The notes beneath the pieces were generated by a model that saw only the letters and a program-made list of their open reading frames with translations, was not told the origin of the DNA and ran no database searches. From an uncultured Calditrichaceae bacterium (GTDB lineage Bacteria > Calditrichota > Calditrichia > RBG-13-44-9 > J075), in NCBI GenBank assembly GCA_964416895.1, contig CAYQGB010000003.1:1-42669 (forward strand): a stretch of 42,669 nt of DNA. The letters are read 5' to 3'. Made by a program: the position numbers and the translations under genes. Positions 5,122 to 25,615 of the stretch are shown in pieces. Each line of letters starts with the position of its first letter. The first letter of the stretch is position 1.

Positions 5122-5168
5122 AGACAATCTCCTCCGTTTGGTTCTAAGGAGCAGGCGTTCCCCCGTAG

Positions 5169-5339
5169 GACAGGCATCTTGCCTGTCATGACTTTTTCGG
5201 TCGGCGCCGGGATCAGGTGTTTTTAAGGACAGGCTGGAAGCCTGTCCTACCTTTTCGATCGGCGCCGGGATCAGTTCGAAGAGATCCACGGTGGTGCCGT
5301 AGTGGGCATCTTCGATGACAGGCTGAAAGCCTGTCCTAC
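5169..5339. repeat. three GACAGGC-N5-GCCTGTC hairpins interleaved with two degenerate copies of the etfA 3' end
   Basis: Hairpins at 5169-5187, 5226-5248 and 5317-5335. Segment 5249-5316 repeats the true etfA end (5343-5413); within it, gccgggatcagNtcgaagagatccacggtggtgccgtagtgggcat differs at one position. 5188-5225 is a shorter, more diverged copy. Confidence 0.85.
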
Positions 5340-6302
5340 CTACTTGAGTTTTTCGGTCAGGGCCGGGATCAGGTCGAAGAGATCCACGGTGGTGCCGTAG
5401 TGGGCATAGTCGAAGATGGGCGCGTTGGGATCGGTGTTCACGGCGATGATCAGTTCCGAATCTTTCATCCCCTCGATGTGTTCCGGCGCCCCGCTGATCC
5501 CCAGGGCCAGATAGAGTTTGGGTTTGACCTTCACCCCGGATTTGCCCACCTGACGGGTTTTGGGCAACCACTTGTTATCCACGATGGGGCGGGAGGCAGA
5601 GACCGCACCGCCCAGCACCTGAGCCAGTTCCTCGGCCATGGGGAGATTCTCTTCGCTTTGAATTCCCCGACCCACGCTGACCAGAATTTCCTGCTGGGTG
5701 ATGTCCACGTCGCCGGCTTCCGGCTCGATCAGTTGCTTGAACTGCACCCGGGGGGAAGCCACGCTTTCCGGGGCGGCGATTTCTTCTACTGCCGGGGAGC
5801 CTTCTTTGCGCCCGGCATCGGCGGGAAAGGAGCCGGCAATTACCGAGATCACGCAGCTATCCCCCTCCACCACCGATTCGGTGTTGATCTTACCCCCGTA
5901 CAGCTGGCTGATGACGGAGAGCCGGCCGTCTTTTACGGCCACATCCACCCCGTAGGAGACCAGAGGCAACTCCAGCGCCGCCGACACCCCCGAGGCCAAA
6001 TCCATGCCCATGGAGGTGTACGGAACCAGCGTCACCGCCGGCTGATTGGCTTTGACCACTTCGGTAAGGGCGGCGCAGTGAGCGTCGGGGTTAAAATTGG
6101 CCAGGTTGGGGTGATCCACGTACAGCACCTTATCCGCCGCGCCCAGTTGACCGGCCAGTTCCTTCACCCCGCTGCCCAGCAGCACGGCTGCCAGTTGACC
6201 GCCCAGGGCATCGGCCAGTTCCCGGCCTTTGCCTAACAATTCAAAGGTCACCTCTTCGATGTTTCCGTTCTGCTGTTCTACAACCACCAGCACGTTGCTC
6301 AT
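5340..6302 (-). CDS. etfA: electron transfer flavoprotein alpha subunit
   Basis: Typical EtfA C-terminal FAD domain (PKLYLALGISGAPEHIEGMKDSELIIAVNTDPNAPIF). 4-nt overlap with etfB. Confidence 0.93.
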   Translation of the reverse strand: MSNVLVVVEQQNGNIEEVTFELLGKGRELADALGGQLAAVLLGSGVKELAGQLGAADKVLYVDHPNLANFNPDAHCAALTEVVKANQPAVTLVPYTSMGMDLASGVSAALELPLVSYGVDVAVKDGRLSVISQLYGGKINTESVVEGDSCVISVIAGSFPADAGRKEGSPAVEEIAAPESVASPRVQFKQLIEPEAGDVDITQQEILVSVGRGIQSEENLPMAEELAQVLGGAVSASRPIVDNKWLPKTRQVGKSGVKVKPKLYLALGISGAPEHIEGMKDSELIIAVNTDPNAPIFDYAHYGTTVDLFDLIPALTEKLK

Positions 6303-7066
6303 TTCTTGATCCCCCTTTCTTTCAGGATGTTCACGATCTTTTCGGCCACTTCTTCGGCGGAGCCTTCCAGCATTTCCGCCCCGGCGCCGGTTTCCGGCTT
6401 GAACATGCGTTCCACGGCGGAGCCGACCGGAACGGCGGCGTCACCGGCGGCGACCTCTTCCAGTTCGGTGCTGCGCATGGCCTGACGCACCCGGCTGACC
6501 GGAGCGTATCGGGGCGTTTGTCGCGCCGCCTGAATGCCCAGCACTGCGGGCAACCGGACCTCGAATTCGGCCATCAGGCCGCCGGCGTACTCCTTCTGCA
6601 CCGTGGCGGCGCCGTCGCTCAGGCTTACGCCGGTCACCACGCTCACGTGGGGCACATCCAGATAGTGCGCTAACAGCACGGCCACCTGACCATCCCGCTC
6701 ATCCACTGCCTGCACCCCGGTGAGGATGAGATCGTATTCCACCGATTGCAGGGCATTGGCGAAGGCTTTGGCGGCCACATGGGCGGGCACCCCGGGGCCG
6801 AAATCGCCGGTGACTTTGATCAACCGGTCGGCACCTTTGGCCGCTGCGGTGTAGAGGGCTTTGTCGATGTCCTCGCTCTCCAGGGCCACGGCGGTGACGG
6901 TAGCGCCGCTCTCCTCCTTCAGCAGAAGGGCCTCTTCCAGAGCGTGATCATCAAACTCGTTGATCTTGTACTTCAGCCAGTCCCGATTGAGATCTTTGCC
7001 GGACTCATCCAGCTCCAGCTCTTCCACCAGATCCGGCACCTGCCGTAATAGAACCACGATATTCAT
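6299..7066 (-). CDS. etfB: electron transfer flavoprotein beta subunit
   Basis: MNIVVLLRQVPDLVEELELD...YKINEFDDHALEEALLLKE is classic EtfB/FixA. Confidence 0.93.
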   Translation of the reverse strand: MNIVVLLRQVPDLVEELELDESGKDLNRDWLKYKINEFDDHALEEALLLKEESGATVTAVALESEDIDKALYTAAAKGADRLIKVTGDFGPGVPAHVAAKAFANALQSVEYDLILTGVQAVDERDGQVAVLLAHYLDVPHVSVVTGVSLSDGAATVQKEYAGGLMAEFEVRLPAVLGIQAARQTPRYAPVSRVRQAMRSTELEEVAAGDAAVPVGSAVERMFKPETGAGAEMLEGSAEEVAEKIVNILKERGIKK

Positions 7067-7144
7067 GGTTTCCGTACCTCCGTATGATTGGTTGTGTTAT
7101 TTGCCAGATGATTCTCTGTCTGGTGATTAAGTCTCCGGGGAGAT

Positions 7145-7262
7145 GCGTATTCGTATTGCGTAATGCGTATTTTGTATTGGATTTCCCATCACGAGTTTCC
7201 CGTTCCATATTCCCAAATCCCCATTCCGCATTCCCCGGTTTTCCGCTACATTTCCCATTCCA
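7145..7262. repeat. 7-nt-periodic repeat tracts (CGTATTG/CGTAATG, then TTCCCNN)
   Basis: gcgtatt cgtattg cgtaatg cgtattt tgtattg followed by atttccc atcacga gtttccc gttccat attccca aatcccc attccgc attcccc. The tract runs into the last codons of the radical SAM gene. Confidence 0.6.
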
Positions 7263-8346
7263 CCATACGCCCGGCCATCGTTCGCCGATGAATTTCCGGT
7301 AGCAGGCGAATCCCCTCTTCAAAATCCACGATGCGGTTGATCAGGTAAAACAGATACATGGTGGTCAGCCAGTTGGTGAATTCCTGCTTGCTTCCCAGAT
7401 GTTTACGCAGGTTGAGCATGACCCAGGAAAAGTGCTCCCAGGTGTCAAAGCAGCTGTCACAATCCCGGTCGATGCCGGTGCAGCAACGCCGGGTGGTGCA
7501 GAAATCGGCGTTGTAGGCCCGGAAGTGGGGATTGTAGGGTTTGCCGTTGGCGATGCGCTCCCGATTGACCGGGTGATCGGCGGTGATGCTGGTGCATACG
7601 TCATATCCCCACCGCTCGTCGTAGAGCCAGCCGGTGGAGACCACTTCGGCGAGGTAGCGGGTCATCAGAATCCGGTCGGGGTAGCGCTCGATCATGCGCT
7701 CGATTTCCTCCCGCACCCGGTCAAAACCCTGCCGGTGATCCAGCTCCCCGCCCATCTGCTCCACATCCCCATAAAAGTTGAACAGCACCCGATTGCCGTT
7801 TTCCACGCACCGGGTAACCACCCGTTCGATCTCGTGGGTGTTGCCGGGGGTGACGGTGTAATACCAGAAAGCGCGGGGATCGTCCCGATAGTTGTTCAGG
7901 GCCCGGGCGAACACATCTACCCGCCCGCTTCCCCGAAGCTGTCGATCGGTTTCATGATCACCCCATACCGAGATGCCGATGGGCATGTTCTCGAACCCTT
8001 CGTAAGGGATACGCCGCAGGCCGTTGGTGGCCACGTTCATACGGAAATTGCGATAGATCTTGTGCAGTCGATCCAGCGCCAGGGTGGGTTCGCCCCCCAC
8101 CACGGTGACGAAATTGGTGCCCCGGGCCTTCTCCCGTTCGATGAAGGCCTCAAAAGCGGCCTCGTCCTTCCCCGGGAGGCGATGGCGATCCATGTTTTCC
8201 GCGAAGTAGTAGCATCCCACGCACCGAAGATTGCATACGTGGGTGAGATCCACGGAAATGGATCGCAACGGCCCCGCCTGCCGAATTTCGGTGTAGAGGC
8301 GGTTTAAAAACGGATCCTGCAGATATGTCCTTAGACTGTTTGCCAT
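7246..8346 (-). CDS. radical SAM protein of unknown function, Cys-rich C-terminal part
   Basis: CNLRCVGCYY (CxxxCxxC) and VVGGEPTL. Additional cluster-like cysteines CTTRRCCTGIDRDCDSC. No resemblance to the two LipS-like proteins outside the core. Confidence 0.85.
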   Translation of the reverse strand: MANSLRTYLQDPFLNRLYTEIRQAGPLRSISVDLTHVCNLRCVGCYYFAENMDRHRLPGKDEAAFEAFIEREKARGTNFVTVVGGEPTLALDRLHKIYRNFRMNVATNGLRRIPYEGFENMPIGISVWGDHETDRQLRGSGRVDVFARALNNYRDDPRAFWYYTVTPGNTHEIERVVTRCVENGNRVLFNFYGDVEQMGGELDHRQGFDRVREEIERMIERYPDRILMTRYLAEVVSTGWLYDERWGYDVCTSITADHPVNRERIANGKPYNPHFRAYNADFCTTRRCCTGIDRDCDSCFDTWEHFSWVMLNLRKHLGSKQEFTNWLTTMYLFYLINRIVDFEEGIRLLPEIHRRTMAGRMVEWEM

Positions 8347-8366
8347 AGTCGGATTCCGGGAAAATT

Positions 8367-8432
8367 GCGTATTGCGTAGTTCGTATTGCGTAGAAAAGGA
8401 TGAACTTACGCAATACGCAATACGAAATACGC
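8367..8432. repeat. long imperfect inverted repeat built from TACGCAA-type heptamers
   Basis: gcgtattgcgtagttcgtattgcgta (8367-8392) pairs with tacgcaatacgcaatacgaaatacgc (8407-8432) at 23 of 26 positions, with a 14-nt loop. Abuts the stop codon of the upstream gene. Confidence 0.85.
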
Positions 8433-9548
8433 CTACTCTCCGATAAACTCCTCTAATTGCAATTGCTCTACAATTTCCTTCTGATCTTCATCGTTGGGCA
8501 CGAAGGGATAATCCCGGTACGGCTCGCTGGGGCGATAGCTGCCGTAAGGGCGGGTGCAACCGGGTTCGCCGTTTTCGCCGGGACACCCGTTGGTCATAAA
8601 CGGCAACCCGGTGCGCACCACCTGCATGACCTGAGACAGGGGCGCTTTCAGGCGGATCAGGTTTCCGGCCTCGTCGAATTCCAGGCGATCCCGGGGCAAA
8701 TCGTAATCTTCCAGCAAACTCTTGACCAGTTGAATCCGCCGCCAGCGGGTAATGTGGGGCTTGGGATGTTCGCCCATCCGGGAATCCGGTTCGGGATTGA
8801 AACAAAACAGGTAAGCGAAGATCTGCCGACTCTTGAGGTAGTAGAACAGGTCAATGAGATCTTTATCGCTTTCCCCCAGACCCACCAGGGTGTGGCAGTT
8901 CACTTTCCAGGGGCCGAAGATTTCCCGGGACCAGTGGATGACGTCCCAGTAGTTCTGCCATTTCAATCCCCCCTGGGGCACATTGGTGCGGCGCTGAACG
9001 AAAACCTCCTCGGTGACCGCATCCAGTCCCACGCCGATCATATCCACCCCCAGCGCTTTGAAGGTCTTCAGCCGGTCGTAATTCAGCGTGGGGGGCGCCA
9101 CCAGGATGGACAGAGGCGTTTTCACTTTTTTCCGAATTCTCTCCGTGATGTCTGCCGTATCCCGATAGGCGTGCCCGTGGGTGACCATGGAGATGCACAG
9201 CCGGGTCAGCCGATCCTGATATTCCGCCATGCGCTCCACCAGCAGATCGGTTTCCACCAGGGGCCAGTCCACCCGGATGAAGGATTTCTCCTCGTATCGC
9301 CCCGGGCGGGTGCGGGCCAGGCCGCAGTAGGCGCAATCGGAAAAGCAGCCCTGCTCGTAGTTCAGCAGGATGTTGATCCCGCCGAACTCGAACCGGCGGG
9401 CGAATCGCCCGGAGATCAACCGCAGGGCGATAGCGCTGGCGCTGCTGATGCGCACATAATCCGGGCTGATTTGAAGCGGCTCCTGAACGCACGGTTCCGC
9501 GAGGGGGATGTTGCCGGAGATGAGTCGGTCAGGGTTTATGCGAGACAT
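8433..9548 (-). CDS. lipS1: radical SAM protein, BioB/LipA-like fold; LipS1-like lipoyl synthase component (which LipS it is remains tentative)
   Basis: CFSDCAYCGLAR radical SAM motif and GLGESDKDL as in the BioB/ThiH/HydE class. Extra Cys pairs near the C-terminus (NGCPGENGEPGC). Flanks the LplA-type ligase, as in sHdr-associated lipoylation loci as I recall them. Confidence 0.7.
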   Translation of the reverse strand: MSRINPDRLISGNIPLAEPCVQEPLQISPDYVRISSASAIALRLISGRFARRFEFGGINILLNYEQGCFSDCAYCGLARTRPGRYEEKSFIRVDWPLVETDLLVERMAEYQDRLTRLCISMVTHGHAYRDTADITERIRKKVKTPLSILVAPPTLNYDRLKTFKALGVDMIGVGLDAVTEEVFVQRRTNVPQGGLKWQNYWDVIHWSREIFGPWKVNCHTLVGLGESDKDLIDLFYYLKSRQIFAYLFCFNPEPDSRMGEHPKPHITRWRRIQLVKSLLEDYDLPRDRLEFDEAGNLIRLKAPLSQVMQVVRTGLPFMTNGCPGENGEPGCTRPYGSYRPSEPYRDYPFVPNDEDQKEIVEQLQLEEFIGE

Positions 9549-9579
9549 AGAACGCTGTTCCTCCTGTGGGATTTACACC

Positions 9580-10719
9580 TCATGCGGTTTGGGATACCTT
9601 CGGGTAGTAACAGGAGCCCCGGTAGGTAAAATGGTGCTCCATACGGGCGCTGCGGGCGGCTTTCCAGATGGCTTCGGCGATGGCCCCGGCAGGAAGGGGA
9701 GCGGCAGCTTGATTCTGAGCCGGAAATGCCTTCAGGGCGTTTTCGACCTCGCTCTCGATGGAGGCTCGATCCAGCGGGCTCCATTTCAGCCGGGATTCGA
9801 TGTGGCGAAAGGCCGCCTCATGGTCCAGGAAATCCCCGGTGATGAGCACGCTTTTGATGGTTTCGCCTTTGAGGGCGATATACACCCGGAGCAGTCCGGC
9901 GGGGGTTTTCTTCAGGCTCATGCCGGTCATATCTGCCTGGGGGGAATTCTGAAACAGCCATTCTTCCCGGCGATATTTCTCCCGGGCCAGTCGCTCGATG
10001 GCCGCGCGTTCTTCGGTAGAGATGGGGGTGGGCTGGAGTGTCATCTGAAAAAGCCGTTCAAAACTCCCGGCGATGCGGGTGCGAATCTCACCCACACTAA
10101 CCTTGCGCCCCAGTTCCCGGGAAACGGTGGTCAGCCGCTGGCGCACGCTGCGGATCATCACCCGATCGGAATATTTTTCCCGGGGAATGTTCAGCACTTT
10201 TAGCATCAGAGGAATATCCAGATCCACCAGCAAACTGGCGTGAAACAGCAGGGCGCCATGGGGATCGTAGTACACCCCCAGCCCGGCGATTTTGCGCCCG
10301 TTTACTTCCAGATCGTTTTTGGGGCGAAAGCGAGCTTCAATGCCCAGTTCCCGCAGGGCCTGAATCAGCGGCCCGGAAAAGCGCCGATAGGCTTCCGCCG
10401 GATGGGCCAGCGCCGGATCCGGCGCGGTGCTCAGGGTCAGGCACACGCCCAGCTGATCTTCCCCCATGAGGATGGCGCCGCCGCCGGTGGGTCGCCGCCC
10501 GATCTGCACCCCCAGTCGCCGACAGTTTTCCAGATGCAACTCCGCTTCCATATTCTGGAATCGCCCCACCAGAGCACAATGGGAACGGTAGGTGTACAGC
10601 CGCAGGGTCGGCTCCGGGCGAGGATGCTGCACCGGATAGTAGCGCATCAGAAATTCGTCGGTTGCCAGCCCGTAGTCGGCGGAGACCTGATCTTCTTCGA
10701 TGTAACGCCAGGGAACCAT
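9580..10719 (-). CDS. lipoate-protein ligase, LplA family, fused catalytic plus accessory domains (sLpl(AB)-like)
   Basis: RRPTGGGAILMGEDQLGVCL and NDLEVNGRKIAGLG (the catalytic Lys motif of BPL/LPL enzymes). At 379 aa it is longer than the catalytic domain alone. Confidence 0.85.
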   Translation of the reverse strand: MVPWRYIEEDQVSADYGLATDEFLMRYYPVQHPRPEPTLRLYTYRSHCALVGRFQNMEAELHLENCRRLGVQIGRRPTGGGAILMGEDQLGVCLTLSTAPDPALAHPAEAYRRFSGPLIQALRELGIEARFRPKNDLEVNGRKIAGLGVYYDPHGALLFHASLLVDLDIPLMLKVLNIPREKYSDRVMIRSVRQRLTTVSRELGRKVSVGEIRTRIAGSFERLFQMTLQPTPISTEERAAIERLAREKYRREEWLFQNSPQADMTGMSLKKTPAGLLRVYIALKGETIKSVLITGDFLDHEAAFRHIESRLKWSPLDRASIESEVENALKAFPAQNQAAAPLPAGAIAEAIWKAARSARMEHHFTYRGSCYYPKVSQTA

Positions 10720-10846
10720 GAGGGTATCAGGTTATATTAGTTGGACATTTTATGAGTTTTGAATTTGTTTCTGAATCAAATGAGTAACATTCCATGAACC
10801 ACGGTTAAGCGCACACATACCCGGTTCAAAGCACCGGGAACGTATG

Positions 10847-10887
10847 GCGTATTTCGCATTGCGTAATGGATCAACTACGCAATACGC
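10847..10887. repeat. TACGCAA-type heptamer inverted repeat
   Basis: gcgtatttcgcattgcgta ... tacgcaatacgc. Confidence 0.6.
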
Positions 10888-10949
10888 ACTTCTCAAACTG
10901 TCACGTGATAGTACACCCTCGATACCCCAATATCCTGATACTCCGCTTC

Positions 10950-11915
10950 CTAATGCCCACAGGAACAGGAACTTTCCGAAAACACCGGTTTCAGTCCTCT
11001 GGCGCGGGCATGGGCCACGATGCCCTCGGCCGGGTAGGCGATGCCGTTCAGACCGTAGTCCACCGCCGCCCGATCCACCGCCAGCTTGTGCTCCCCTAAT
11101 GGTCGGGCGCAGCCCAGCATCAGCAGGGTATCCGGCATCCGGGTGCGGGCTTCGTAAAAAAAGTGCTCGATGTCTTCCAGGGCCGGGGGAGCCACATGCT
11201 GCATGGGCGTGCCCACCAGCGGGGTCAAAATGACCAGCACCAGGGAGTGCACCGGATACCGGCGAATGAGATTCAAGGCTTGATATTCCCCCAGAAATTT
11301 CCCGAAATGCAATCCCAGGATGATGTGCGGGCGCACGCTGTGGCCGTATTGAGTCAGGTAGGCCAGAGAGCGGTCAAAATCCTCCACGGTGAGGTTCAGA
11401 TGATACACTTCCCGGATGGTGCGTTCATCTCCGATGATGTCCAGCATTACCCCATCCACACCGGCTTCTTTCAGACCTGCGGCGGTGGGTTCATCCACTA
11501 CTCCGCAGTGCACCATGATCCGCAGCCCCAGTTCCCGCTTGGCCCGGGCGATGTCCGGAAAGTATTTCTTCAGGGGCACCGCGCCGTTGGGCTGGGAGCC
11601 GCCGCTGATCAACACCCCGGTGGTGCCGTTCTCCGCCAGCCGCCGACACAGGTTGAACAGGCCCTCCCGGGGATTGAGCGCCACCATCGGCTCCAGAATT
11701 TTGGATTTGCAGTGCTCGCACTGAAGGGCGCAGGCGCTTCCGGTAAGGCTGATGGGGCGAAAGGCCTGGGGGGTCTGTTGTCGAAACTCCTCGGTCTGAA
11801 AGTGCTTTAAACCGGGAGCAAAAAAGTAGATCTCGTCGCAGAAGTTGTTTCGACGTACGGCGAAAGCGCGCTTGCGCAAGAAATCGACTTCCGGGGTTAA
11901 GACTTCGCCAACCAT
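10950..11915 (-). CDS. lipS2: radical SAM protein; LipS2-like lipoyl synthase component (assignment tentative)
   Basis: CALQCEHC radical SAM motif. Start moved to MVGEVLTPEV (ATG 11915, GAGGA about 8 nt upstream), giving a 19-nt overlap with lbpA. Second radical SAM flanking the ligase. Confidence 0.7.
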   Translation of the reverse strand: MVGEVLTPEVDFLRKRAFAVRRNNFCDEIYFFAPGLKHFQTEEFRQQTPQAFRPISLTGSACALQCEHCKSKILEPMVALNPREGLFNLCRRLAENGTTGVLISGGSQPNGAVPLKKYFPDIARAKRELGLRIMVHCGVVDEPTAAGLKEAGVDGVMLDIIGDERTIREVYHLNLTVEDFDRSLAYLTQYGHSVRPHIILGLHFGKFLGEYQALNLIRRYPVHSLVLVILTPLVGTPMQHVAPPALEDIEHFFYEARTRMPDTLLMLGCARPLGEHKLAVDRAAVDYGLNGIAYPAEGIVAHARARGLKPVFSESSCSCGH

Positions 11916-12346
11916 CCCCAATCCTCGTATTTCCGGATTTCCGCTTCGTACCATTGCCGCAGGGCCGATTCGCCGGTGAGCAGGAGGGGTTTCTCCTGCT
12001 CGAAGTTGGTCAGCCGCACTTCGATGAGCCAGCCTTCCCCGTAGGGATCGGTGTTGGCCAGCCGGGGATTTTCCAGCACCGCCGGGTTGACCGCTTCGAT
12101 TACTCCGGAAACCGGAGCGTTCAGGGCGCCCACGTGTTTTTCCGCTTCCACGCTGCCGAAGCTCTCGCCCCGCTTCAACGGCTTACCCGCCGATTCCAGT
12201 TGTATCACCACAAAGGCGCCTTTGGTCTCCTGTTCCAGGGGATCGATCCCGATGCGGGCGCGGTCGCCTTCTACCCGGAGCCAGAGATGCTCCCGGGGAT
12301 CGTAATACAAATCGGGATAGATTTCGTACTCGCGGATTTTGAACAT
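11897..12346 (-). CDS. lbpA: GcvH-like lipoate-binding protein (LbpA-type)
   Basis: Start at MFKIREYEIY. GcvH fold signature GSVEAEKHVGALNAPVSGVIEAVN with the lipoyl-Lys position. No gcvT/gcvP nearby. Confidence 0.85.
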   Translation of the reverse strand: MFKIREYEIYPDLYYDPREHLWLRVEGDRARIGIDPLEQETKGAFVVIQLESAGKPLKRGESFGSVEAEKHVGALNAPVSGVIEAVNPAVLENPRLANTDPYGEGWLIEVRLTNFEQEKPLLLTGESALRQWYEAEIRKYEDWGWLAKS

Positions 12347-12402
12347 AGCTCGCCTCATAAGATTGCGATTACCGAACAAATTCGAGAAAAGGGCAGGGGA
12401 GA

Positions 12403-12490
12403 GGAAACCGTTTAAACGGTTTCCGGATGTTTTTTTAAACCGTTTAAACGGTTTAAAATCCTCCCGCGTAAAACCGTTTAAACGGTTTTA
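12403..12490. promoter_or_regulatory. three copies of the perfect palindrome AACCGTTTAAACGGTT
   Basis: ggAAACCGTTTAAACGGTTTcc 12403-12424, ttAAACCGTTTAAACGGTTTaa 12435-12456 and taAAACCGTTTAAACGGTTTta 12469-12490. Centre-to-centre spacing 32 and 34 bp. Lies between shdrB3-like and lbpA. Confidence 0.8.
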
Positions 12491-13753
12491 CACCCCCATC
12501 GCCTCCACCACCAGCTCGATGATGTCCCGCACAATCAATTTGCCTTCATTACCGGTTGACTTTACCGCATCTTCAAACCGGGAAACCTCGTAGGGGCAGC
12601 ACACCGCCAGCACCTCGGCGCCGGTTTCCACCGCCTCCCGCACCCGGCGTTCGGAAAGCCGCTCCGCCACATGGTCGGCCATGAACCCGTCCAGCCACAT
12701 GCCCCCACCGCCACCGCCGCAGCAGTAGCTGTTCTGTTTGCACCGCCCCATCTCGATCAATTCTATCCCCGGAATGGAGGTGAGCATCTTCCGGGGAGCC
12801 TCAAACTCCCCGTGGTGCCGTCCCAGGTAGCAGGGATCGTGGAAAGTCACCCTGTAGCTCAGGGGCTTCTTGAACTCCAGTTGATCCATCAGGGGCGCCA
12901 GGAAGGTGGTATAGTGCACCACGTCGAACTCCCCGCCGTATTTGGGATATTCCTTCTTGAAGGCATTCAGGGCATGGGGATCGGTGACCAGAATCCGGTT
13001 GAACTTATATCGCTTGAGGGTGCGAATATTTTCCTCGGCGAATTCCTCGAACAGCCCCTTTTCTCCCGCCAGGCGCTGGGAGTCGCAAGAGCACTTTTCC
13101 TCCGGGCCGAGAATGCCGAAGTCGATTCCCAGCGCGTTCAGCACCTTTGCCAGCGCCCGACTGGCGTCGATTCCCCGGGGGTGATAGGAGGGATAGCACT
13201 CCACGAACCAGAGGATATCCGCCTGTTTTTTGGTCTTCATCAGGGGAACCGGCACTCCGGCGCCTTTGGCCCAGTCGGCGCGCTTGCGGGGGGATTCTCC
13301 CAGGGGATTGCCGTATTCAAAGGTGTTTTCAAACACCTCCTGAAGTTCGGCGGGAACGTTGCCGTCCAGCACCGCCACCTCCCGCACTGCGGGCATGATC
13401 TGGATCATGTCCACATTTTTTGGGCACACCCGCAGGCAGTTCATGCAGGTGGTGCATTTCCACAAATCCGCATCGTTGAACAGATCGATTCCCGCCTGCA
13501 CGTTGCGGTAAATCTTGCGGGGGCCGTAATCGCCGCCCACAATATCCACCGGGCACACCCCCACACACTGGGCGCACTGGTAACACCAGCCCAGCGACTC
13601 CCCGCCTTCCAGCGCGGTGATCTTATCCATCACCTCGGTTTCGTAATCAAAGATGGGGCGCTGGGTGAACATGCGGTTCCAGTCGCCGGTCAGTTCAATC
13701 CCATCGACAACGACTTTTTCCAGTTCCTGAATTTGGCTCTTATCCACCGGCAT
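12488..13753 (-). CDS. shdrB3: fused HdrC/HdrB-like (HdrD-like) Fe-S protein; sHdrB3-like
   Basis: CYQCAQCVGVCP and CTTCMNCLRVCP, then CCG-domain motifs (DPCYLGRH, YCCGGGGGG). The C-terminus STGNEGKLIVRDIIELVVEA is nearly the same as the Emo C-terminus. Confidence 0.85.
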   Translation of the reverse strand: MPVDKSQIQELEKVVVDGIELTGDWNRMFTQRPIFDYETEVMDKITALEGGESLGWCYQCAQCVGVCPVDIVGGDYGPRKIYRNVQAGIDLFNDADLWKCTTCMNCLRVCPKNVDMIQIMPAVREVAVLDGNVPAELQEVFENTFEYGNPLGESPRKRADWAKGAGVPVPLMKTKKQADILWFVECYPSYHPRGIDASRALAKVLNALGIDFGILGPEEKCSCDSQRLAGEKGLFEEFAEENIRTLKRYKFNRILVTDPHALNAFKKEYPKYGGEFDVVHYTTFLAPLMDQLEFKKPLSYRVTFHDPCYLGRHHGEFEAPRKMLTSIPGIELIEMGRCKQNSYCCGGGGGGMWLDGFMADHVAERLSERRVREAVETGAEVLAVCCPYEVSRFEDAVKSTGNEGKLIVRDIIELVVEAMGV

Positions 13754-14489
13754 GCTGTTGTTCCTCCGTATTGTACACGCCCAGCAGTCGGCGGGAAAAC
13801 TCCGCCAGACCGGGCATTACTTTGTTGAACTCCTGAGTCATGCGCAGGCGCAGCACAGTATACACGTAGATTACATACACGCAGGCCAGAAAGGCGTCCA
13901 CGCCGAAAGACCCCTCACCGATGACCTCGAAACCGGCGGCTTCGCCCACGTGGCGCACGAACGACAGCGCCTCTCCCAGCCGCAAATACGTTGCGCCGAT
14001 GCCTCCCGCCTCCAGATCGTACTCCTCTACCAGCACCAGGGGAAGCGCCCCGGTTTTGTTCCGGGGATCCCATATCCAGCGGGTCCACAGCCAGTGTTGC
14101 TTCGGGTGGGTGAAATGGAGCAGCTCGCTGCCCAGGTCGAAGCGCAGCGTTTCTTCCACGGCGGTGACCTGCCCGCAGAACCGTTCCAGGCGCTGATGAA
14201 CCTCTCCCGACCCGTAAAGCAGGTCGTTCATCCAGGCAACCAGCTGTTCTGCGCCGTGGGTCTCGATCAACCGGCGAGCCTTGCGGCGCACGGAAAAGAT
14301 TTGCCGCAGCAGGGAGTACAGGGCCTTTTCATCTAGATCGGGCAGCCTTTGCGGCGCCAGGGTTTCCTGGAAGTAGCGGCTTTTCACCTCCATGTCCTGA
14401 CAGATGCGGTACAGTTCCGCCACGGAAATCTTGCCCATGGCTTCTTTCATAAATTCCCGGGCGGAATCGATGTCCATAATTTGCGCCAT
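13740..14489 (-). CDS. conserved hypothetical protein in the shdrH position
   Basis: Good coding ORF between shdrA and the fused hdrCB, with a 14-nt overlap downstream. Start set to ATG MAQIMDIDSA because the longer GTG start lies inside a REP hairpin. No recognisable motif. Confidence 0.55.
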   Translation of the reverse strand: MAQIMDIDSAREFMKEAMGKISVAELYRICQDMEVKSRYFQETLAPQRLPDLDEKALYSLLRQIFSVRRKARRLIETHGAEQLVAWMNDLLYGSGEVHQRLERFCGQVTAVEETLRFDLGSELLHFTHPKQHWLWTRWIWDPRNKTGALPLVLVEEYDLEAGGIGATYLRLGEALSFVRHVGEAAGFEVIGEGSFGVDAFLACVYVIYVYTVLRLRMTQEFNKVMPGLAEFSRRLLGVYNTEEQQHAGG

Positions 14490-14558
14490 AGCTACCCGAT
14501 GGTTTTTACTGGCAAATTCTGATGCCTTGAGGCAAAAGGCTGCCCCGGTTAACTTTCC

Positions 14559-14850
14559 GGTCACCTTTCGACAAGCTCAGGGTGACCGATCCGGGTCATG
14601 CTGAGCCTGTCGAAGCATGACCGCTTCGGGTTATCCTTAGCCCGTTTCATAATTGCTTGTAGGGTTTCAAAACACAGCTTTTCCGCCTCCTTCCACCGCT
14701 CCTGCGGTGGAAGGAAGAGAAGGCGCTCCCGCGCCTACCTATTCTTCCACCTAACCCTACAAGAATTACTGAAATAGACCACTTAGCTTGTTGAAGCATG
14801 AGCGCTCCGGGTTATCCGGGGCTGCTGAGCCTGTCGAAGCATGCCCCCCG
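14559..14850. repeat. nested REP/MITE-like palindromic element inside the shdr operon
   Basis: Hairpins GGTCACC-ttcgacaagctca-GGTGACC (14559-14587), GGTCATGC-tgagcctgtcgaa-GCATGACC (14594-14622) and a third at 14817-14848. Outer inverted repeat cttgtagggtt (14655-14665) / aaccctacaag (14752-14762) around the central hairpin ccttccaccgc-tcct-gcggtggaagg. Confidence 0.75.
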
Positions 14851-14914
14851 CTCCTGAAATTCCCTTCGCTTCTCGCCCTGCCCGCCTGGGGTTAGCAGGT
14901 TATCGCCACCCGAC

Positions 14915-15976
14915 TCAGGCCGATACCTCCGCCAGATTGCGCACGGTGCTGATGGCCTTCATGGCCGCCAGCCCGGCGGCGGAGATGCTGTCTTCCAGAT
15001 CGGCCGGCCCGGTGCAGGCCCCGGCGGCAAACACCCCCGGCACCGAGGTGGTAACCGTATCCAGCGGCCCGCCCAGCGTTTCGATAAAATTGTACTTGTT
15101 CTGCTTCAGACCGAAGATTTTGGCCATCTCCCGGGTACCCGCGCTGGGTTCCATGCCCACGGAAAGCACCACTATATCCATGGGAATTTCAAACGGTCGG
15201 CGCATGGTGGTATCTTCCCCCCGCACCAGCAGCTTATCCCCTTTCTTGAGGATTTCCGTGGCAATGCCCTTGATGTAGTTGACGTGATACTTCTCCTGCG
15301 CCGGCCAGTAGATTTCGTTTTCCCAGTAGCCGTACATCCGCATATCGATGTAGAAGATGTACACCTTGCAGTCGGGAAGCTGCTGGCGGATTTCGATGGC
15401 CTCTTTGGAAGCGATCCCGCAGCAGACTTTGGAGCAGTACTCATTCCCGATGCGCCGATCCCGGGACCCCACGCACTGGATGAAGCACACCCGTTCCGGG
15501 GGCTGCCCGTTGGACGGCCGCACCACCCGATGGGCTTTGAGCATCCGCTCGCAATCCACCAGAGTGATCACGTCTTCGTATTCGTAATAGCCGTACTTCT
15601 GGGTTTCTCGACCGGGATCAAAGTGCTGGAACCCGGTGGCGATGATCACCGCTCCCACGTTCACTTTTTCCGACTGTTTGGCGTTCTTGATGGTCACCGT
15701 GAAGTCGCCCACCTGTCCTTCGGCGGCCACCACGGTGGATTGCAGGCGCAACTCCACGTTGGGATTGTTCTCCACCCGGGAAATCATCTCGTTCATGGCC
15801 TCTTCCGCGCTGCGCAGATCCGGGGTCAGGGCGGCGTATTCCGCTTCGTCAGGAGTACCGCCTAAGCGATGGCGCTTTTCTACCAGAATGGCTTTATAGC
15901 CCAGATCGGCAATGCCCCGGGCCGCTTCCAGTCCTGCCGGGCCGCCTCCGATTACCAGAATGTCTTGACTAGGCAT
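14915..15976 (-). CDS. shdrA: sulfur-oxidation-type HdrA-like flavoprotein (short form)
   Basis: ILVIGGGPAGLEAA FAD fold. CFIQCVGSRDRRIGNEYCSKVCC is the HdrA [4Fe-4S] cysteine signature. Only 353 aa, with no inserted ferredoxin domains. Confidence 0.9.
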   Translation of the reverse strand: MPSQDILVIGGGPAGLEAARGIADLGYKAILVEKRHRLGGTPDEAEYAALTPDLRSAEEAMNEMISRVENNPNVELRLQSTVVAAEGQVGDFTVTIKNAKQSEKVNVGAVIIATGFQHFDPGRETQKYGYYEYEDVITLVDCERMLKAHRVVRPSNGQPPERVCFIQCVGSRDRRIGNEYCSKVCCGIASKEAIEIRQQLPDCKVYIFYIDMRMYGYWENEIYWPAQEKYHVNYIKGIATEILKKGDKLLVRGEDTTMRRPFEIPMDIVVLSVGMEPSAGTREMAKIFGLKQNKYNFIETLGGPLDTVTTSVPGVFAAGACTGPADLEDSISAAGLAAMKAISTVRNLAEVSA

Positions 15977-17168
15977 CTGCGTCCTCCCAGGTTAAGTATT
16001 CCTTTTCACCCTTCTTGATCTTCTCTACCGCGTCCTCAAATTCCTGCCATTTCTGCTTCCAGTCGATTCCTAACTTCTCGAAGAACGGTTTGTTATCCGT
16101 GTTGTGCCAGTGCAGTTGCAGCACCTTGTAGGGATGGGCGCCCATGGCCAGCGCCGCCATTTGCGAATCGGACATTACCGGAACCCCGACGTTCTTCCCG
16201 TGGGCCCGCCCGGCAAACTGACTCTGATCCAGCGTGGTAACGCAGCCGGTATCGTGGGTTACCACGATGTCCGGGTTGGCTTCGTTTTTCATCACTTCGA
16301 TTTTGCGCTGCACGGCAAAGGAGCGGGAGAAATCCCGGGACACCAGGATGTGCCGGAATCCAAAGCCGCAGCAGTCATACCAGGTGGAATAATCCGCCAC
16401 ATTCACCCCCAGCGCTTTCAGGGTACCGGTAACGATGGCCGACCGCTGTGCTCCGTAGATTTCTTCATCGTAGATGGCGTCCTCTTCCACCAACTTGTGA
16501 TAGTGACAGGCCGGGTGCACCGTGGCGGTGATGTGGCTCATGTCGATTTCCTGCCGGTCGGCGATGCGGTCCCGGATGGCATACACCCACTCGCTGTAGT
16601 GCACGATCTCTTCCGGCATAACCAGCTTTTTGCCCAGCCGCTCCATGATCTCCCGCACCTGGCGGCGCAGATCGTGATGGTGCAGCAGTTCATGGCGTAC
16701 CTCTTTGTAATGTCCGAAGCTGGTGCCGCAATGGATGATGGGAAAGTAGCCGGTTTCGTAGGCGGCGCCGAAGTTACGGGCAGCCACCGCCGCCTGGGCC
16801 GCGGCGTTGGAAGTGGCCGAGGCGTAATAATTCCAGGCAGTGCAGGAGGTCTGATCCCGGGGGTCGATATAATCGAAGCCCAGTTTCCGGTTGATCCAGA
16901 AAATCGAGGTGGAATATCCCGGAATGTGCCCGCACTGGCCGCAGCTTTTATGGTGCCAGGTGTGTTCCAGGGGAATCTTCTTTTTGCGCCCGTACTTGGT
17001 GGTTACCTCCACATACGGTTCGGGCACCCGCTGAACAATCAGTTCCCCCTCCTTTTCCAGTTGAAACAGAATATCGTGAAAATCCTCCGTGGGAGCCTCT
17101 TCCGGCGTGGTCTTGAATCCCGGAGTCTTCCCGGCTTTGATGACTTCTTCAACGGGGATATGGCTCAT
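15969..17168 (-). CDS. shdrB1: HdrB-like CCG-domain protein
   Basis: CCG-type motif WYDCCGFGF plus further conserved Cys. 8-nt overlap with shdrA. Sits between hdrC-like and hdrA-like. Confidence 0.85.
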   Translation of the reverse strand: MSHIPVEEVIKAGKTPGFKTTPEEAPTEDFHDILFQLEKEGELIVQRVPEPYVEVTTKYGRKKKIPLEHTWHHKSCGQCGHIPGYSTSIFWINRKLGFDYIDPRDQTSCTAWNYYASATSNAAAQAAVAARNFGAAYETGYFPIIHCGTSFGHYKEVRHELLHHHDLRRQVREIMERLGKKLVMPEEIVHYSEWVYAIRDRIADRQEIDMSHITATVHPACHYHKLVEEDAIYDEEIYGAQRSAIVTGTLKALGVNVADYSTWYDCCGFGFRHILVSRDFSRSFAVQRKIEVMKNEANPDIVVTHDTGCVTTLDQSQFAGRAHGKNVGVPVMSDSQMAALAMGAHPYKVLQLHWHNTDNKPFFEKLGIDWKQKWQEFEDAVEKIKKGEKEYLTWEDADA

Positions 17169-17213
17169 GGCTTACCCTCGCAATTTATATGATTGAATGG
17201 TTTCCTTTTGGGA

Positions 17214-17957
17214 TCAATCAAACGTGACATCGTCGTACCCGGCTTCCTCCAGGCGCTCTTCCATCACGTCTTGCAGGATCATAAACAGCCCCTCATCCAC
17301 CTCTTTGATCATGTCCATCACCCCGGTCATGTGCCAGATGAGGTACAGCTCGATCATGGTTTTCTCATCCACGTCCCAGCCGATTTCGGTGGTGTGCAGG
17401 GTTTCCGGGGGCAGCGCCCGACGCCAGAGCTCTAAGTTCTCGGAGATCTCATGCACGTGGGTACCCCAGTCGGGGAAGGCATCCGGTTGGAGCATATCCG
17501 GGGAAACCTGGGTTCCGGTGGACATGATTTTGTAGATGATCCGGCCGTAGCCTTCCAGAGCCTCCCGGGCGGTTTGCAGACCGTTTTTCACCGCCACTTC
17601 CCGCAGCAGGGTGATCAGCCCGCCCGGCGAATTCCCCCGGGGGCAGCGGTCACAGGAGAAGCACTGGGAACAATCCCAGATGCTGTCGTTCATCAGGGTG
17701 TACACCAGTTCCACGTCTTCCCGGGCGCAGGCCTGGGCGATCACCCGGGGACTGAAATCGTAGAAGCGCGCCGACGGGCAGGCGGCCACGCACACGCCGC
17801 ACTCATAACATCCGTAGAGCACGTCTTTATAGCGAATATCGGCCTTGACTTCTTCAAACAGCCGCTTTTTCTCCTCGTACGGCACCTCGGCATAGCGATC
17901 CTGAGATAGATCCAGCGGATACGTATTCAAAGCATGAGAATCCTGCCAGGCGGCCAT
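17214..17957 (-). CDS. shdrC1: HdrC-like 2x[4Fe-4S] protein
   Basis: CYECGVCVAACP and CSQCFSCDRCP. Confidence 0.85.
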   Translation of the reverse strand: MAAWQDSHALNTYPLDLSQDRYAEVPYEEKKRLFEEVKADIRYKDVLYGCYECGVCVAACPSARFYDFSPRVIAQACAREDVELVYTLMNDSIWDCSQCFSCDRCPRGNSPGGLITLLREVAVKNGLQTAREALEGYGRIIYKIMSTGTQVSPDMLQPDAFPDWGTHVHEISENLELWRRALPPETLHTTEIGWDVDEKTMIELYLIWHMTGVMDMIKEVDEGLFMILQDVMEERLEEAGYDDVTFD

Positions 17958-17982: not shown

Positions 17983-18453
17983 TTAGTCTTCGAAGCCTTC
18001 CAGATGCTCGCAGGCTTTGATGTCTTCTTTTTCGATCTTTTCCCGATAAGCCTGCACCGCATCATCGCCGGTGTGTAGCTCTTTCAGCTCTTCATCCAGA
18101 TTGGAGGGTTTGAGTTTGACAATCCAGCCTTTTTTGTACGGGCTGCGATTGAGCAGTTGGGGATCGGAGGCGAGCGCCTCGTTGACTTCCACAATTTCCC
18201 CGGAGATGGGGGTTTTGACCGGCCCCACCCACTTGCTGCTCTCCACCGTTCCGATGGGTTTTCCTTTGGCCCGTGTGGTGCCCACTTTTTTCACCCGGGC
18301 GTGCAGAATCGGCCCGGCCAGATTTTGAGCCACGTCGGTCATTCCCACGGTCACCGTGCCGTCATCGTTGGGCTGCGCCCAGGTGTGATCATCCACCGCA
18401 TAGTACAACTGTTTCAGGATCACACACCCTCGAATTTCTTCACGATCTGCCAT
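17983..18453 (-). CDS. lbpA: GcvH-like lipoate-binding protein (LbpA-type), second copy
   Basis: ATG at 18453 with GAGGAA upstream. GTVESSKWVGPVKTPISGEIVEVN carries the lipoyl-Lys motif. First gene of the shdrC1B1A unit. Confidence 0.85.
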   Translation of the reverse strand: MADREEIRGCVILKQLYYAVDDHTWAQPNDDGTVTVGMTDVAQNLAGPILHARVKKVGTTRAKGKPIGTVESSKWVGPVKTPISGEIVEVNEALASDPQLLNRSPYKKGWIVKLKPSNLDEELKELHTGDDAVQAYREKIEKEDIKACEHLEGFED

Positions 18454-18528
18454 GTCAACGTTCCTCACCGTTTAGAGTCCTTCCGGGGATTGCAGGGTAA
18501 GGGGAATATTGTGCGACAGGCGAAGCAC

Positions 18529-19100: not shown

Positions 19101-19294
19101 CGTGCGTGATGCGTGATTATTTGCCTTCATTCGGTGTGTCCTAGGCTTACGAAAAACAGCCAAAACCCGATGACTTCCGCTTTATCTCTTGATACGTGAT
19201 ACGTGATTGTTTTTTACATATATGATTATTTTTTCACGCATTACGCATCACGTTTCACGCATCACGCATTACCATTACGCATCACGTTTCACGC
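19101..19294. repeat. CACGCAT/CACGTTT heptamer arrays in inverted orientation around an AT-rich core
   Basis: cgtgcgtgatgcgtgat (19101-), gatacgtgatacgtgat (19191-), AT core tgttttttacatatatgattatttttt, then tcacgcattacgcatcacgtttcacgcatcacgcattaccattacgcatcacgtttcacgc (19234-19294). Confidence 0.8.
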
Positions 19295-19635
19295 TTTTCG
19301 GTTTCTGCTTCGGGTAAATCATCTTCCAAAGAAATAGTGCAGGGTTTGAAGGGATCGGCCAGCACGATCAGGTGCTGCCGTTCCCAATCCCATTCCTCCT
19401 CCAGTTCCATCATGTGCTCGTGCAGATCCTCTTTCCGGGGGCTGTGGCGGATCAGCCGCAGCTTTACCGGGGTCTGGTTTGCGTTGACCTCCAGAACTTC
19501 CAACAGCAGCCATTCCCCGGCTTTTTCCTGATAAATCCGGGCAATGTCCGGCAATGTGAGAATTTTGTCTTCCCATTCACTCACGGCTTTCCCATCAGCT
19601 CTGGGCAATTTTTTCTGACAGAGTGGCAATGGCAT
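19282..19635 (-). CDS. small hypothetical protein (alternative GTG start at 19584)
   Basis: ORF directly after the second ligase gene. The ATG start overlaps that gene by 41 nt, whereas the GTG at 19584 lies 11 nt after its stop. Acidic, no motif. Its last codons lie in the heptamer repeat. Confidence 0.45.
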   Translation of the reverse strand: MPLPLCQKKLPRADGKAVSEWEDKILTLPDIARIYQEKAGEWLLLEVLEVNANQTPVKLRLIRHSPRKEDLHEHMMELEEEWDWERQHLIVLADPFKPCTISLEDDLPEAETEKRET

Positions 19636-20674
19636 CTACCCAATCCGGAATGGTGACTCCGGGCGTTTGAATGCCTTCCTCCAGATAAAACTTTTGAATC
19701 CGACGCAACAGGGTGGAGCGGTTAGCCTTTACCCCCCGGAGGGTCTCTTCCAATTGCCGAATTTTCTCCTGGGGATAAAAGGTAAAATCTCCGGAAATAA
19801 GGATGTCGTCAATATGGTGGTCTCGCAGGCGCAGGGTAATGCGGATCAGGCCCCCGGGGGTTTTGACCTGAGTTTCCCCCACCCATACACCGCCGTGAAT
19901 TTTGACCGCCGGTCGGGCGTATCCCCCTTTGGAGAACAACCACTCCTCTGTGGCAAACTTCCGTTCGGTGTCGGCAATGGCCTGTTCTTCGGCCCCGGTC
20001 AGCTCTCCCACTTCCACCCGTTCGCCGAAAATCTTCTCGCATTCTTCCACATACAGCCGGATGACTTCTTCCCGTTGTGGAAGCGTGTTCAGTTCCTTCT
20101 TCATGGTGGTCATGTAATCCCGAAGGCCGGAATACACTTTGTCGCGAAACTTCTCATCCGGCACCCGCAGGATTCTGGCCATCAGATCGATGTTGAAGTC
20201 GAACATGAAATTGCCCACCAGCACCTCGGCCTGACCGATTCGGGCGGCGCCCAGACCGGCAATTTTACGCCCGGCCACCTGGATGTCGTTGATGGGGCGG
20301 AAGTAAGCCTCGATCCCCAGCCGCTTGTAGGTCTGAATAATGGGGAGGGCATGGAGGCGGAACCGTTCATCCACCCGCATGGGCAGTGAGGAAGGCGAAA
20401 ACACCCACTGGGTAAACAGTTGATCCTGATCCAGATATACCGCTCCCCCGCCGACTTCCCGGCGAACGATGGGCAAATCATGGGCCCGGCAAAACTCCAC
20501 ATCCACCTCTTTGGTGACCTCCTGGTGAAATCCAATGCAGATGTACGGAGCCGAGGGGGTAACCAGCAGGATGGTGTTGGGGCTTTGAGAATGAAAGGCC
20601 CGCGCCACGCCGTGATATACCGCCTGGGAACGTAGCGGCGGCACCGTGCCCATGTGGATCAGGCGAATGGCCAT
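19595..20674 (-). CDS. second LplA-family lipoate-protein ligase paralog
   Basis: VRREVGGGAVYLDQDQL and NDIQVAGRKIAGLGAARIG match the same motifs as the 9580-10719 protein. Confidence 0.85.
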   Translation of the reverse strand: MAIRLIHMGTVPPLRSQAVYHGVARAFHSQSPNTILLVTPSAPYICIGFHQEVTKEVDVEFCRAHDLPIVRREVGGGAVYLDQDQLFTQWVFSPSSLPMRVDERFRLHALPIIQTYKRLGIEAYFRPINDIQVAGRKIAGLGAARIGQAEVLVGNFMFDFNIDLMARILRVPDEKFRDKVYSGLRDYMTTMKKELNTLPQREEVIRLYVEECEKIFGERVEVGELTGAEEQAIADTERKFATEEWLFSKGGYARPAVKIHGGVWVGETQVKTPGGLIRITLRLRDHHIDDILISGDFTFYPQEKIRQLEETLRGVKANRSTLLRRIQKFYLEEGIQTPGVTIPDWVDAIATLSEKIAQS

Positions 20675-22756: not shown

Positions 22757-22827
22757 AGCCCAACCTTTCTATTTTGCAGGATTTTTACCGTACTTTGTCC
22801 CACAGTATCCCATATATGGCCGGTTTA

Positions 22828-23307: not shown

Positions 23308-23341
23308 GCTGCTGCTCCTTAACTCGTGTTTCGGTGAATGG

Positions 23342-24076: not shown

Positions 24077-24182
24077 AGGCGCATACTCGTTTCCGGTTTA
24101 TCTTTATTCCCCATACAAAAAAGGAGGTGTGGAAAGGACTGCCCCTCCCCACACCTCTGGTCCAGCCCATCCAGGCCCAACC

Positions 24183-25532: not shown

Positions 25533-25615
25533 AACGTACCTCCATCGGTTAAATGTGAAACGGCGTAACAGTTGAAAAACCCCTCTCCGCTTCCTGGCCT
25601 GATCCTGTAAGGTGA

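Follow-up and report, generated by a model that had tools for sequence, protein, structure and literature searches.

A probable sLpl(AB)-LipS1/LipS2 lipoate assembly operon within a type II sHdr cluster of a Calditrichota-like bacterium

Analysis of a 42,669-nt stretch of DNA from an uncultured Calditrichaceae bacterium (assembly GCA_964416895.1, contig CAYQGB010000003.1; this whole stretch is hereafter called the window) indicates that the interval 7246-12346 very likely constitutes a lipoate assembly operon of the sLpl(AB)-LipS1/LipS2 type, residing in a type II sHdr cluster of a Calditrichota-like bacterium. The interval comprises five genes, encoding in order of transcription a GcvH-like carrier, LipS1, a lipoate ligase (ligase 1), LipS2 and a third radical S-adenosylmethionine (SAM) protein; all of the genes of interest are encoded on the minus strand (Table 1). 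Genes were called from open reading frames (ORFs) together with Pfam and NCBIfam profile matches, and motif coordinates were checked against the sequence; the ORFs so called are long and match their profiles strongly, and are not a product of chance. The nearest relatives on record are labelled Calditrichaeota or Calditrichaceae. An earlier note on this DNA, made from the letters alone, had described four of these genes as a dedicated lipoate assembly module, with an LplA-family ligase flanked by two radical SAM genes, one of 321 aa with CALQCEHC and another of 371 aa with CFSDCAYC and a GLGESD motif, a GcvH-like carrier with the motif SVEAEKH immediately upstream, and a further carrier with VESSKWV. 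Each of these genes is present with the features described, including the GGGA and GRKIAG motifs of the ligase, but the account of the interval was incomplete, since it omitted the third radical SAM gene; a second ligase elsewhere in the window likewise went unmentioned.

LipS-type genes are usually annotated as 'biotin synthase' or 'radical SAM protein'. We compared the two radical SAM proteins flanking ligase 1 by BLASTP with TK2109 (LipS1) and TK2248 (LipS2) of Thermococcus kodakarensis, using the sequences in the supplement of Neti et al. 2022. The CALQCEHC protein displayed 40% identity to TK2109 over 255 aa (E = 1e-58) vs. a far weaker match to TK2248 (E = 1.5e-8), and the CFSDCAYC protein displayed 32% identity to TK2248 over 331 aa (E = 1.7e-44) vs. 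E = 0.07 for TK2109. The NCBIfam models divided the pair in the same manner: the LipS1 model (NF053742) scored 225.5 bits on the CALQCEHC protein, on which the bioB model reached 23.2 bits, and the LipS2 model (NF053743) scored 189.5 bits on the CFSDCAYC protein, with the next family at 50 bits and bioB at 29.1 bits. As judged by these sequence comparisons and by the ligand alignments described below, the CALQCEHC protein is assigned as LipS1 and the CFSDCAYC protein as LipS2, which reverses the labels that the earlier note had tentatively attached to the two.

Mutagenesis of the Thermococcus enzymes has defined the cluster ligands of LipS1 as C27, C31, C34, H159, C230 and C276/C277, and those of LipS2 as C39, C43, C46, C85, H178, C276 and C279 (PMC9585515). 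In the window LipS1, the CALQCEHC segment aligns with C27, C31 and C34 of TK2109, preserving the CX3CX2C motif, and the columns of H159, C230 and C277 are invariant in four aligned sequences; the position of C276 is taken by serine, with the second cysteine located two residues on (SCSC), such that the protein ends in CxC. In the alignment of LipS2 with TK2248, all seven ligand columns are invariant, the CX3CX2C motif included, and the last pair of ligands is spaced as Cx7C rather than CxxC as a result of a 6-residue insert. Every ligand position required by mutagenesis in either enzyme is therefore kept in the window proteins as well as in two orthologs. Searches of the PDB yielded no solved structure of the LipS1 or LipS2 family.

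The genomic context is in keeping with these assignments. A type II sHdr cluster comprises shdrC1B1AHB3 and etfAB, usually with emo after them (PMC11094781), and shdrC1B1AHB3-etfAB-emo are all present in one cluster of the window, with the lipoate genes placed between shdrB3 and etfBA-emo. Beyond shdrC1, on the upstream side, are genes for a canonical LbpA, a DsrE protein, a 117-aa ORF, a second ligase (ligase 2) and a DsrE2/E3-like protein. The co-directional order carrier-lipS1-lpl-lipS2 is repeated in over 60 related loci of genomic and metagenomic origin. Features of the canonical LipA/LipB pathway, i.e. a lipA with Cx4Cx5C and RSSY or a lipB or lipM, are absent from the window: no match to LipA, LipB, LipM or a LipT-like flavoprotein was found among the window ORFs of at least 150 aa, in agreement with the remark in the earlier note that lipA and lipB were missing. 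Gene identities, conserved ligands and synteny are all direct observations on this DNA, and it is family profiles, ligands and synteny that sustain the earlier assignment of the gene set to the sLpl(AB)-LipS1/LipS2 pathway in an sHdr setting.

Within the operon, the stop codon of the carrier gene lies beyond the start of lipS1, with an overlap of 19 nt, and 86 nt separate lipS2 from the third radical SAM gene downstream, which has the same orientation. We also noticed a 230-nt gap between lipS1 and ligase 1 (10720-10949) in an otherwise tight operon; some orthologous loci likewise have a gap here, as with the 175 nt at L005. Scanning of 6900-12700 for promoters and terminators revealed sites no commoner than in shuffled sequence, with just a single weak promoter-like site in the gap (10775-10747), and an Rfam scan of the whole window, gap included, returned no RNA family.

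Two proteins of the window match GCV_H, keep the predicted lipoyl-lysine and are encoded in or next to the shdr cluster. LbpA, as described by Cao 2018, is distinguished by a lipoyl-lysine together with a conserved N-terminal and a conserved C-terminal cysteine that GcvH lacks (PMC6067878). The earlier note had taken both carriers for LbpA proteins, and for the carrier at 17983-18468 this holds, as both LbpA cysteines are present. For the carrier adjoining the synthase genes (11897-12346) it is doubtful, given that this protein is entirely devoid of cysteine. The same division is seen among orthologs, counted without de-replication: among 60 carriers adjacent to synthase genes, 47 had no cysteine and none had the N-/C-terminal pair, vs. 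0 without cysteine and 51 with the pair among 53 carriers adjacent to sHdrC1. The cysteine-free carrier also fell below both NCBIfam GcvH cut-offs (100.2 vs. 117 and 86.1 vs. 115.85) and has no gcvT, gcvP or other glycine-cleavage neighbors. It would seem to represent a separate kind of lipoyl carrier found in type II clusters, and may act as a redox partner of sHdrB3/ETF or as an assembly scaffold.

Ligase 1 (TIGR00545, 175 bits) has fused LplA and LplB domains and carries the GRKIAG motif with the lysine that binds lipoyl-AMP. Ligase 2 has the same fused domains and motif, and the two are 31% identical by BLASTP. In a neighbor-joining tree of 34 Lpl proteins encoded in such clusters, three clades were evident: 1) clade A, with ligase 1, found beside the cysteine-free carrier and always next to lipS1/lipS2; 2) clade B, with ligase 2, found beside dsrE, the canonical LbpA and shdrC1; 3) clade C, not represented in the window, comprising shorter proteins whose genes, in other loci, separate lipS2 from the third radical SAM gene. 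Two Lpl genes are likewise carried by most type II clusters from metagenomes. We surmise that the simplest reading is one of two ligase/carrier pairs sharing a single LipS1/LipS2 synthase. The claim of the earlier note that one enzyme set lipoylates both carriers is probably too simple, because a second full-length ligase of a separate clade is encoded near the canonical LbpA. As to the clade C proteins themselves (~335 aa; L007:9030-10037, with equivalents in L014, L017, L027, L028, L042, L051 and L058, from several phyla), no LplB domain was detected in the L007 protein, the sole copy scanned, and proteins of this clade could be LipM- or LipL-like transferases.

For the substrates, the order of sulfur insertion, the pairing of ligases with carriers and the source of electrons we draw on homology to characterized systems. 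In Thioalkalivibrio, ligase activity and the modification of LbpA by a lipS1-slpl(AB)-lipT-lipS2 helper plasmid have been shown, and in Hyphomicrobium deletion of slpl(AB) led to loss of LbpA modification (PMC10332631, PMC6067878); in Thermococcus, sulfur insertion has been shown to proceed at C8 and then at C6 (PMC9585515). By analogy, ligase 1 would activate free octanoate or lipoate with ATP and transfer the acyl group to K70 of the adjacent carrier. LipS2 would then generate a 5'-deoxyadenosyl radical that removes hydrogen from C8, with insertion of sulfur from an auxiliary [4Fe-4S] cluster, and LipS1 would carry out the equivalent reaction at C6 to complete the lipoyl group, after which the holo-carrier or holo-carriers would serve the sHdr complex. 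Ligase 2 most likely loads the canonical LbpA, and LipS1 and LipS2 would then act on both carriers.

Several observations weigh against this interpretation, as evidenced by: 1) the LipS1 score of 225.5 bits, which falls 4.5 bits short of the equivalog cut-off of 230; 2) the LipS2 score of 189.5 bits, which does not reach its cut-off of 270; 3) the lack of lipT or any other obvious reductant gene in cis; 4) the PDB ranking for ligase 1, in which Gram-positive ligases come first, then a Thermoplasma enzyme and then E. coli LplA, a ranking that is indecisive and that included no sLpl(AB) reference, the published sLpl(AB) proteins forming subgroup 3 of clade 3 in the ligase tree of Tanabe 2023 (PMC10332631); 5) the possibility that the direct client of the synthase set may not be a classical LbpA, because the adjacent carrier lacks both of the cysteines that define LbpA. 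With respect to the LipS2 score, the NCBIfam equivalog cut-off is a threshold for annotation and not a biochemical criterion, and the window LipS2, for which LipS2 is the best family by 139 bits, is by its sequence a member of a divergent bacterial branch. The absence of lipT in cis is not unusual, because LipT is encoded by only 53% of bacteria that contain LipS1/S2 (PMC10332631).

Other explanations for the lipoate genes were weighed against the same data. That both radical SAM proteins are of the BioB, HydE, ThiH or PylB type and unrelated to lipoate, an outcome named in the earlier note as fatal to its own proposal, has in its favor some weak similarity tails (bioB at the scores given above, HmdB at 31 bits and PylB at 15.6 bits) and one biotin synthase chain matching at E = 5e-4; with the LipS models ahead by 140-200 bits, with direct similarity to TK2109 and TK2248, with LipS-specific auxiliary ligands kept and with synteny to a lipoate ligase and carriers, this explanation is scarcely conceivable and is already effectively refuted, and we rejected a BioB, HydE or ThiH identity for both proteins on the basis of profile scores and BLASTP. 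A second explanation is that the genes represent the only lipoate pathway of the organism, serving GcvH and E2 domains as well, and that their position in the sHdr cluster is incidental. Just 42% of LipS1/S2-containing bacteria have sHdr (PMC10332631), the adjacent carrier resembles GcvH and has neither of the LbpA cysteines, and the window holds no lipA or lipB, all of which would fit. Yet in dozens of loci from different phyla the operon is enclosed by shdrB3 and etfB, the carrier reaches neither GcvH cut-off and stands apart from gcvT and gcvP, and the characterized sLpl(AB) ligases are inactive on lipoyl domains other than those of LbpA (PMC10332631), rendering a general-purpose role quite improbable.

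A third explanation is that lipoate is built on the cysteine-free carrier as a scaffold, by ligase 1 along with LipS1/LipS2, and that ligase 2 then passes the lipoyl group to LbpA. The occurrence of two carrier types and two or three Lpl paralog clades per cluster, together with the invariable placement of the cysteine-free carrier as the first gene of the synthase operon, is compatible with such a transfer, for which the GcvH-LipL route of Bacillus subtilis provides a precedent (PMC6067878, PMC10332631). This arrangement is less likely than two ligase/carrier pairs because ligase 2 retains the adenylation-associated LplB-like domain (see Table 1 for its scores) and, with its GRKIAG motif, resembles a true ligase and not an amidotransferase of the LipL type; in addition, the pairing of paralogs with carriers varies across loci. 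We deem it improbable.

Turning to the third radical SAM protein, 785 homologs were found, all unnamed, of which the best 120, from several phyla, are 65-82% identical to it. Nine cysteines are invariant, namely the three of the SAM motif plus C180, C251, C288, C289, C296 and C299, and the six extra ones suggest, from the sequence, one or more auxiliary clusters. In PDB profile searches the core matched SkfB (6EFN, E = 3e-8) and CteB (5WGG, E = 2e-5), with no PDB match past about residue 190 and no SPASM or twitch model matched. An AlphaFold2 model had a predicted local distance difference test score (pLDDT) of 68, with the cysteine and C-terminal regions below 50, and Foldseek vs. the PDB returned generic radical SAM barrels only (TYW1, PylB, viperin and HydE). 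Scanning one genome per GTDB species, we found 445 relatives and examined 51 close ortholog loci, of which 23 had the gene no more than 10 kb from lipS, lpl or shdr genes and in every case co-directional with them; in these loci it came directly after lipS2 (as in the window), followed a clade C Lpl or emo, or preceded dsrE. At four of them (L020, L021, L031 and L042) the order was carrier-lpl-lipS1-lipS2 followed by this gene, with no sHdr gene within the fetched flank. In the neighbor-joining tree every lipS-linked copy fell within one clade of 32, vs. 0 of 20 copies linked outside that clade, and the bootstrap support of the clade was 94/200 (47%).

One role for the third radical SAM protein that we considered, as a replacement for LipT, was rejected, given that type II clusters without the gene are also without a LipT-like ORF in cis; the idea is further weakened by the 47% of LipS1/S2-containing bacteria that have no LipT anyway (PMC10332631). 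More broadly, the protein might take part in the maturation of lipoate or of its carrier in some type II sHdr organisms, for instance by a further radical reaction that alters the acyl chain held on the carrier, or the carrier protein itself. In support of such an extended module are the position of the gene on the same strand just past lipS2, its linkage to lipoate genes (even in the four loci where sHdr is missing from the flank), the confinement of linked copies to a single clade, and a conservation (60-82% identity) above that of neighboring genes, along with the six extra invariant cysteines. Against it, only 3 of 80 LipS2-centered metagenomic type II loci carry the gene, lipS2 being followed directly by etfB in 51; close homologs stand alone in Anaerolineae or are found in polyketide synthase/non-ribosomal peptide synthetase (PKS/NRPS) clusters; the bootstrap value is low and the model mediocre, with generic fold and profile matches; and the characterized systems of Thioalkalivibrio and Hyphomicrobium (PMC10332631) and of Thermococcus (PMC9585515) dispense with it. 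An extended module is thus a tentative proposition and, on balance, somewhat unlikely. Because only those 3 of the 80 loci carry it, the gene is an accessory of some lineages and not a core part of the pathway.

The PKS/NRPS homologs (50-63% identity) occur in Nostoc (L026, L030, L032 and L040), Sphingomonas (L052) and Bradyrhizobium (L053), at ~10001-11070 in each locus, and those of Nostoc have as neighbors one gene resembling an HMG-CoA synthase and two resembling enoyl-CoA hydratases, on the evidence of the ORF sequences. This neighborhood hints at chemistry on carrier-tethered acyl chains. Unlinked loci have no conserved neighbors besides lineage-specific PKS/NRPS or kinase genes. A more far-reaching proposal would join these elements into a five- to six-gene assembly system of Calditrichota, KSB1, Bacteroidota, Planctomycetota, Marinimicrobia and some Acidobacteriota type II lineages, composed of a cysteine-free carrier distinct from LbpA, LipS1, LipS2, two or three specialized Lpl proteins and the third radical SAM protein acting on the acyl chain or the carrier, with a PKS/NRPS sister clade performing related chemistry on carrier-tethered acyl chains; we hold this to be rather unlikely.

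The operon, which we continue to read as an sLpl(AB)-LipS1/LipS2 system, resembles that of Thioalkalivibrio sp. K90mix and Hyphomicrobium denitrificans in having the three enzyme families beside a GcvH-like carrier in an shdr cluster, with a fused LplA and LplB ligase and no involvement of lipA or lipB. In contrast to those organisms, in which type I clusters were studied, the host cluster in the window is of type II (shdrB3-etfAB-emo), the gene order is carrier-lipS1-lpl-lipS2 without lipT, lipX or lipY, the cysteine pair is missing from the adjacent carrier, a second ligase is present, and an extra radical SAM gene follows lipS2. The likeness to Thermococcus LipS1/LipS2 with Lpl-N/Lpl-C (PMC9585515) resides in the CX3CX2C motif, the auxiliary ligands and a presumed C8-then-C6 order. 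The window ligase, however, is a fused bacterial enzyme whereas that of Thermococcus is bipartite, and its client is an sHdr-linked carrier; in addition, the window LipS1 ends in CxC instead of CC, and the window LipS2 bears, besides the insert between its last ligand cysteines, an N-terminal extension of ~28 residues.

With the LipB/LipM-LipA and LplA pathways of E. coli and B. subtilis, the system shares the lipoyl-lysine product, the PF03099 ligase superfamily and radical SAM insertion of sulfur from a sacrificial cluster. Unlike LipA, the synthase consists of two separate BioB-related proteins devoid of the Cx4Cx5C and RSSY motifs, and unlike the LipB/LipM routes, the window offers no transferase dependent on acyl carrier protein. 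Relative to the GcvH-LipL relay of B. subtilis, a relay role for the cysteine-free carrier is hypothetical only. Among enzymes of solved structure, the SPASM/twitch members SkfB and CteB are closest to the third radical SAM protein and are similar to it in the N-terminal core and in having a cysteine-rich C-terminal region; it differs from them in that no precursor peptide gene is evident, its partners being lipoate genes or, in the sister clade, PKS/NRPS genes.

The pathway itself is already published (Cao 2018; Tanabe 2023), and the Dahl group has catalogued type II clusters together with the lipoate genes they carry (PMC10332631, PMC11094781); the window is a further example, adding one more case, from a Calditrichota-like genome of metagenomic origin, of a pathway discovered in 2018 and proven in 2022-2023, and the value of its LipS1/LipS2 pair lies in correct annotation. 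Type II sHdr biochemistry is largely untested, and the cysteine-free carrier lacks the cysteines to which a central role in LbpA function is attributed. If the carrier, the two or more ligases per cluster and the conserved radical SAM protein represent real functional differences, the model of lipoate in sHdr systems would need an extra role for a carrier and an extra radical step. We see a modest chance that these extra features amount to a new variant of the pathway. The literature that we covered, from which the Kumpel 2024 review that set out type II systems was absent such that a prior description is possible, contained no mention of the third radical SAM gene or of the cysteine-free carrier in shdr clusters, nor of the extra ligase paralog.

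Table 1. Features of the lipoate genes and of the sHdr cluster in the window (nt positions; residues numbered within each protein)
Feature	Position	Strand	Description
GcvH-like carrier (cysteine-free)	11897..12346	-	149 aa; Pfam GCV_H 4e-28; first gene of assembly operon
Predicted lipoyl-lysine K70 of cysteine-free carrier	codon 12137-12139	-	motif SVEAEKH
LipS1 (putative)	10950..11915	-	321 aa from ATG at 11915; longest ORF starts at 11954 (334 aa)
LipS1 radical SAM motif CALQCEHC	11709-11732	-	plus PHII, GCARP and C-terminal CSC auxiliary ligands
Ligase 1, fused LplA+LplB, sLpl(AB)-like	9580..10719	-	379 aa; LplA-B_cat 7e-40, Lip_prot_lig_C 1e-5
Ligase 1 motif GGGA	10474-10485	-	from residue 79
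Ligase 1 motif GRKIAG	10282-10299	-	from residue 141
LipS2 (putative)	8433..9548	-	371 aa; RLC at residue 118, CH...VGLGESD, CPGENGEPGC
LipS2 radical SAM motif CFSDCAYC	9324-9347	-	
Third radical SAM protein	7246..8346	-	366 aa; generic Radical_SAM matches only
Third radical SAM motif CNLRCVGC	8212-8235	-	
Third radical SAM, Cys-rich C-terminal stretch	7450-7491	-	RRCCTGIDRDCDSC
Canonical LbpA (second carrier)	17983..18468	-	161 aa; Pfam GCV_H 4e-39; directly upstream of shdrC1
Predicted lipoyl-lysine K79 of canonical LbpA			motif VESSKWV; cysteines in N-terminal RGC and C-terminal KAC
Ligase 2, LplA+LplB paralog	19595..20674	-	359 aa; LplA-B_cat 9e-37, Lip_prot_lig_C 4e-8; NCBIfam LplB 54 bits
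Ligase 2 motif GRKIAG	20255-20272	-	
shdrC1	17214-17957	-	type II sHdr core (12488..17957)
shdrB1	15969-17168	-	type II sHdr core
shdrA	14915-15976	-	type II sHdr core
shdrH-like	13740-14564	-	type II sHdr core
shdrB3	12488-13753	-	HdrC plus CCG fusion; type II sHdr core
etfB	6299-7066	-	downstream of interval
etfA	5340-6302	-	downstream of interval
emo-like membrane HdrD	probable start 5121, end 3034	-	

Among the remaining genes of the sHdr cluster, the protein at the shdrH position (274 aa) has no Pfam or NCBIfam match, yet is conserved in all related clusters. The longest ORF of emo (3034-5571, 845 aa, with a GTG at 5571) overlaps etfA by ~230 nt; the true start is probably the ATG at 5121, giving 695 aa, because orthologs are 692-696 aa in length. 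The 117-aa ORF (19282-19635, minus strand), for which no family match was found, overlaps the end of the ligase 2 gene by 41 nt. SoxZ and SoxY are encoded just upstream of the sHdr genes, in a block at 22421-26809 on the minus strand that also specifies a TAT-signal protein matching Rieske weakly, an FccB-like flavoprotein of the sulfide dehydrogenase kind and a sulfur transporter of the YeeE/YedE type; soxAXB was not seen among the annotated window ORFs of at least 150 aa. Further away are two sigma-54-dependent two-component systems and a 1432-aa Ser/Thr kinase-AAA16-TPR protein (27320-30177 and 34483-37606 on the minus strand, 37669-41967 on the plus strand). A comparable giant kinase lies beside an orphan homolog of the third radical SAM gene in the Anaerolineales loci L003, L004, L012, L015 and L033, which may be a coincidence. 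Lastly, the assembly GCA_003695965.1 contains an identical stretch of 5.7 kb.

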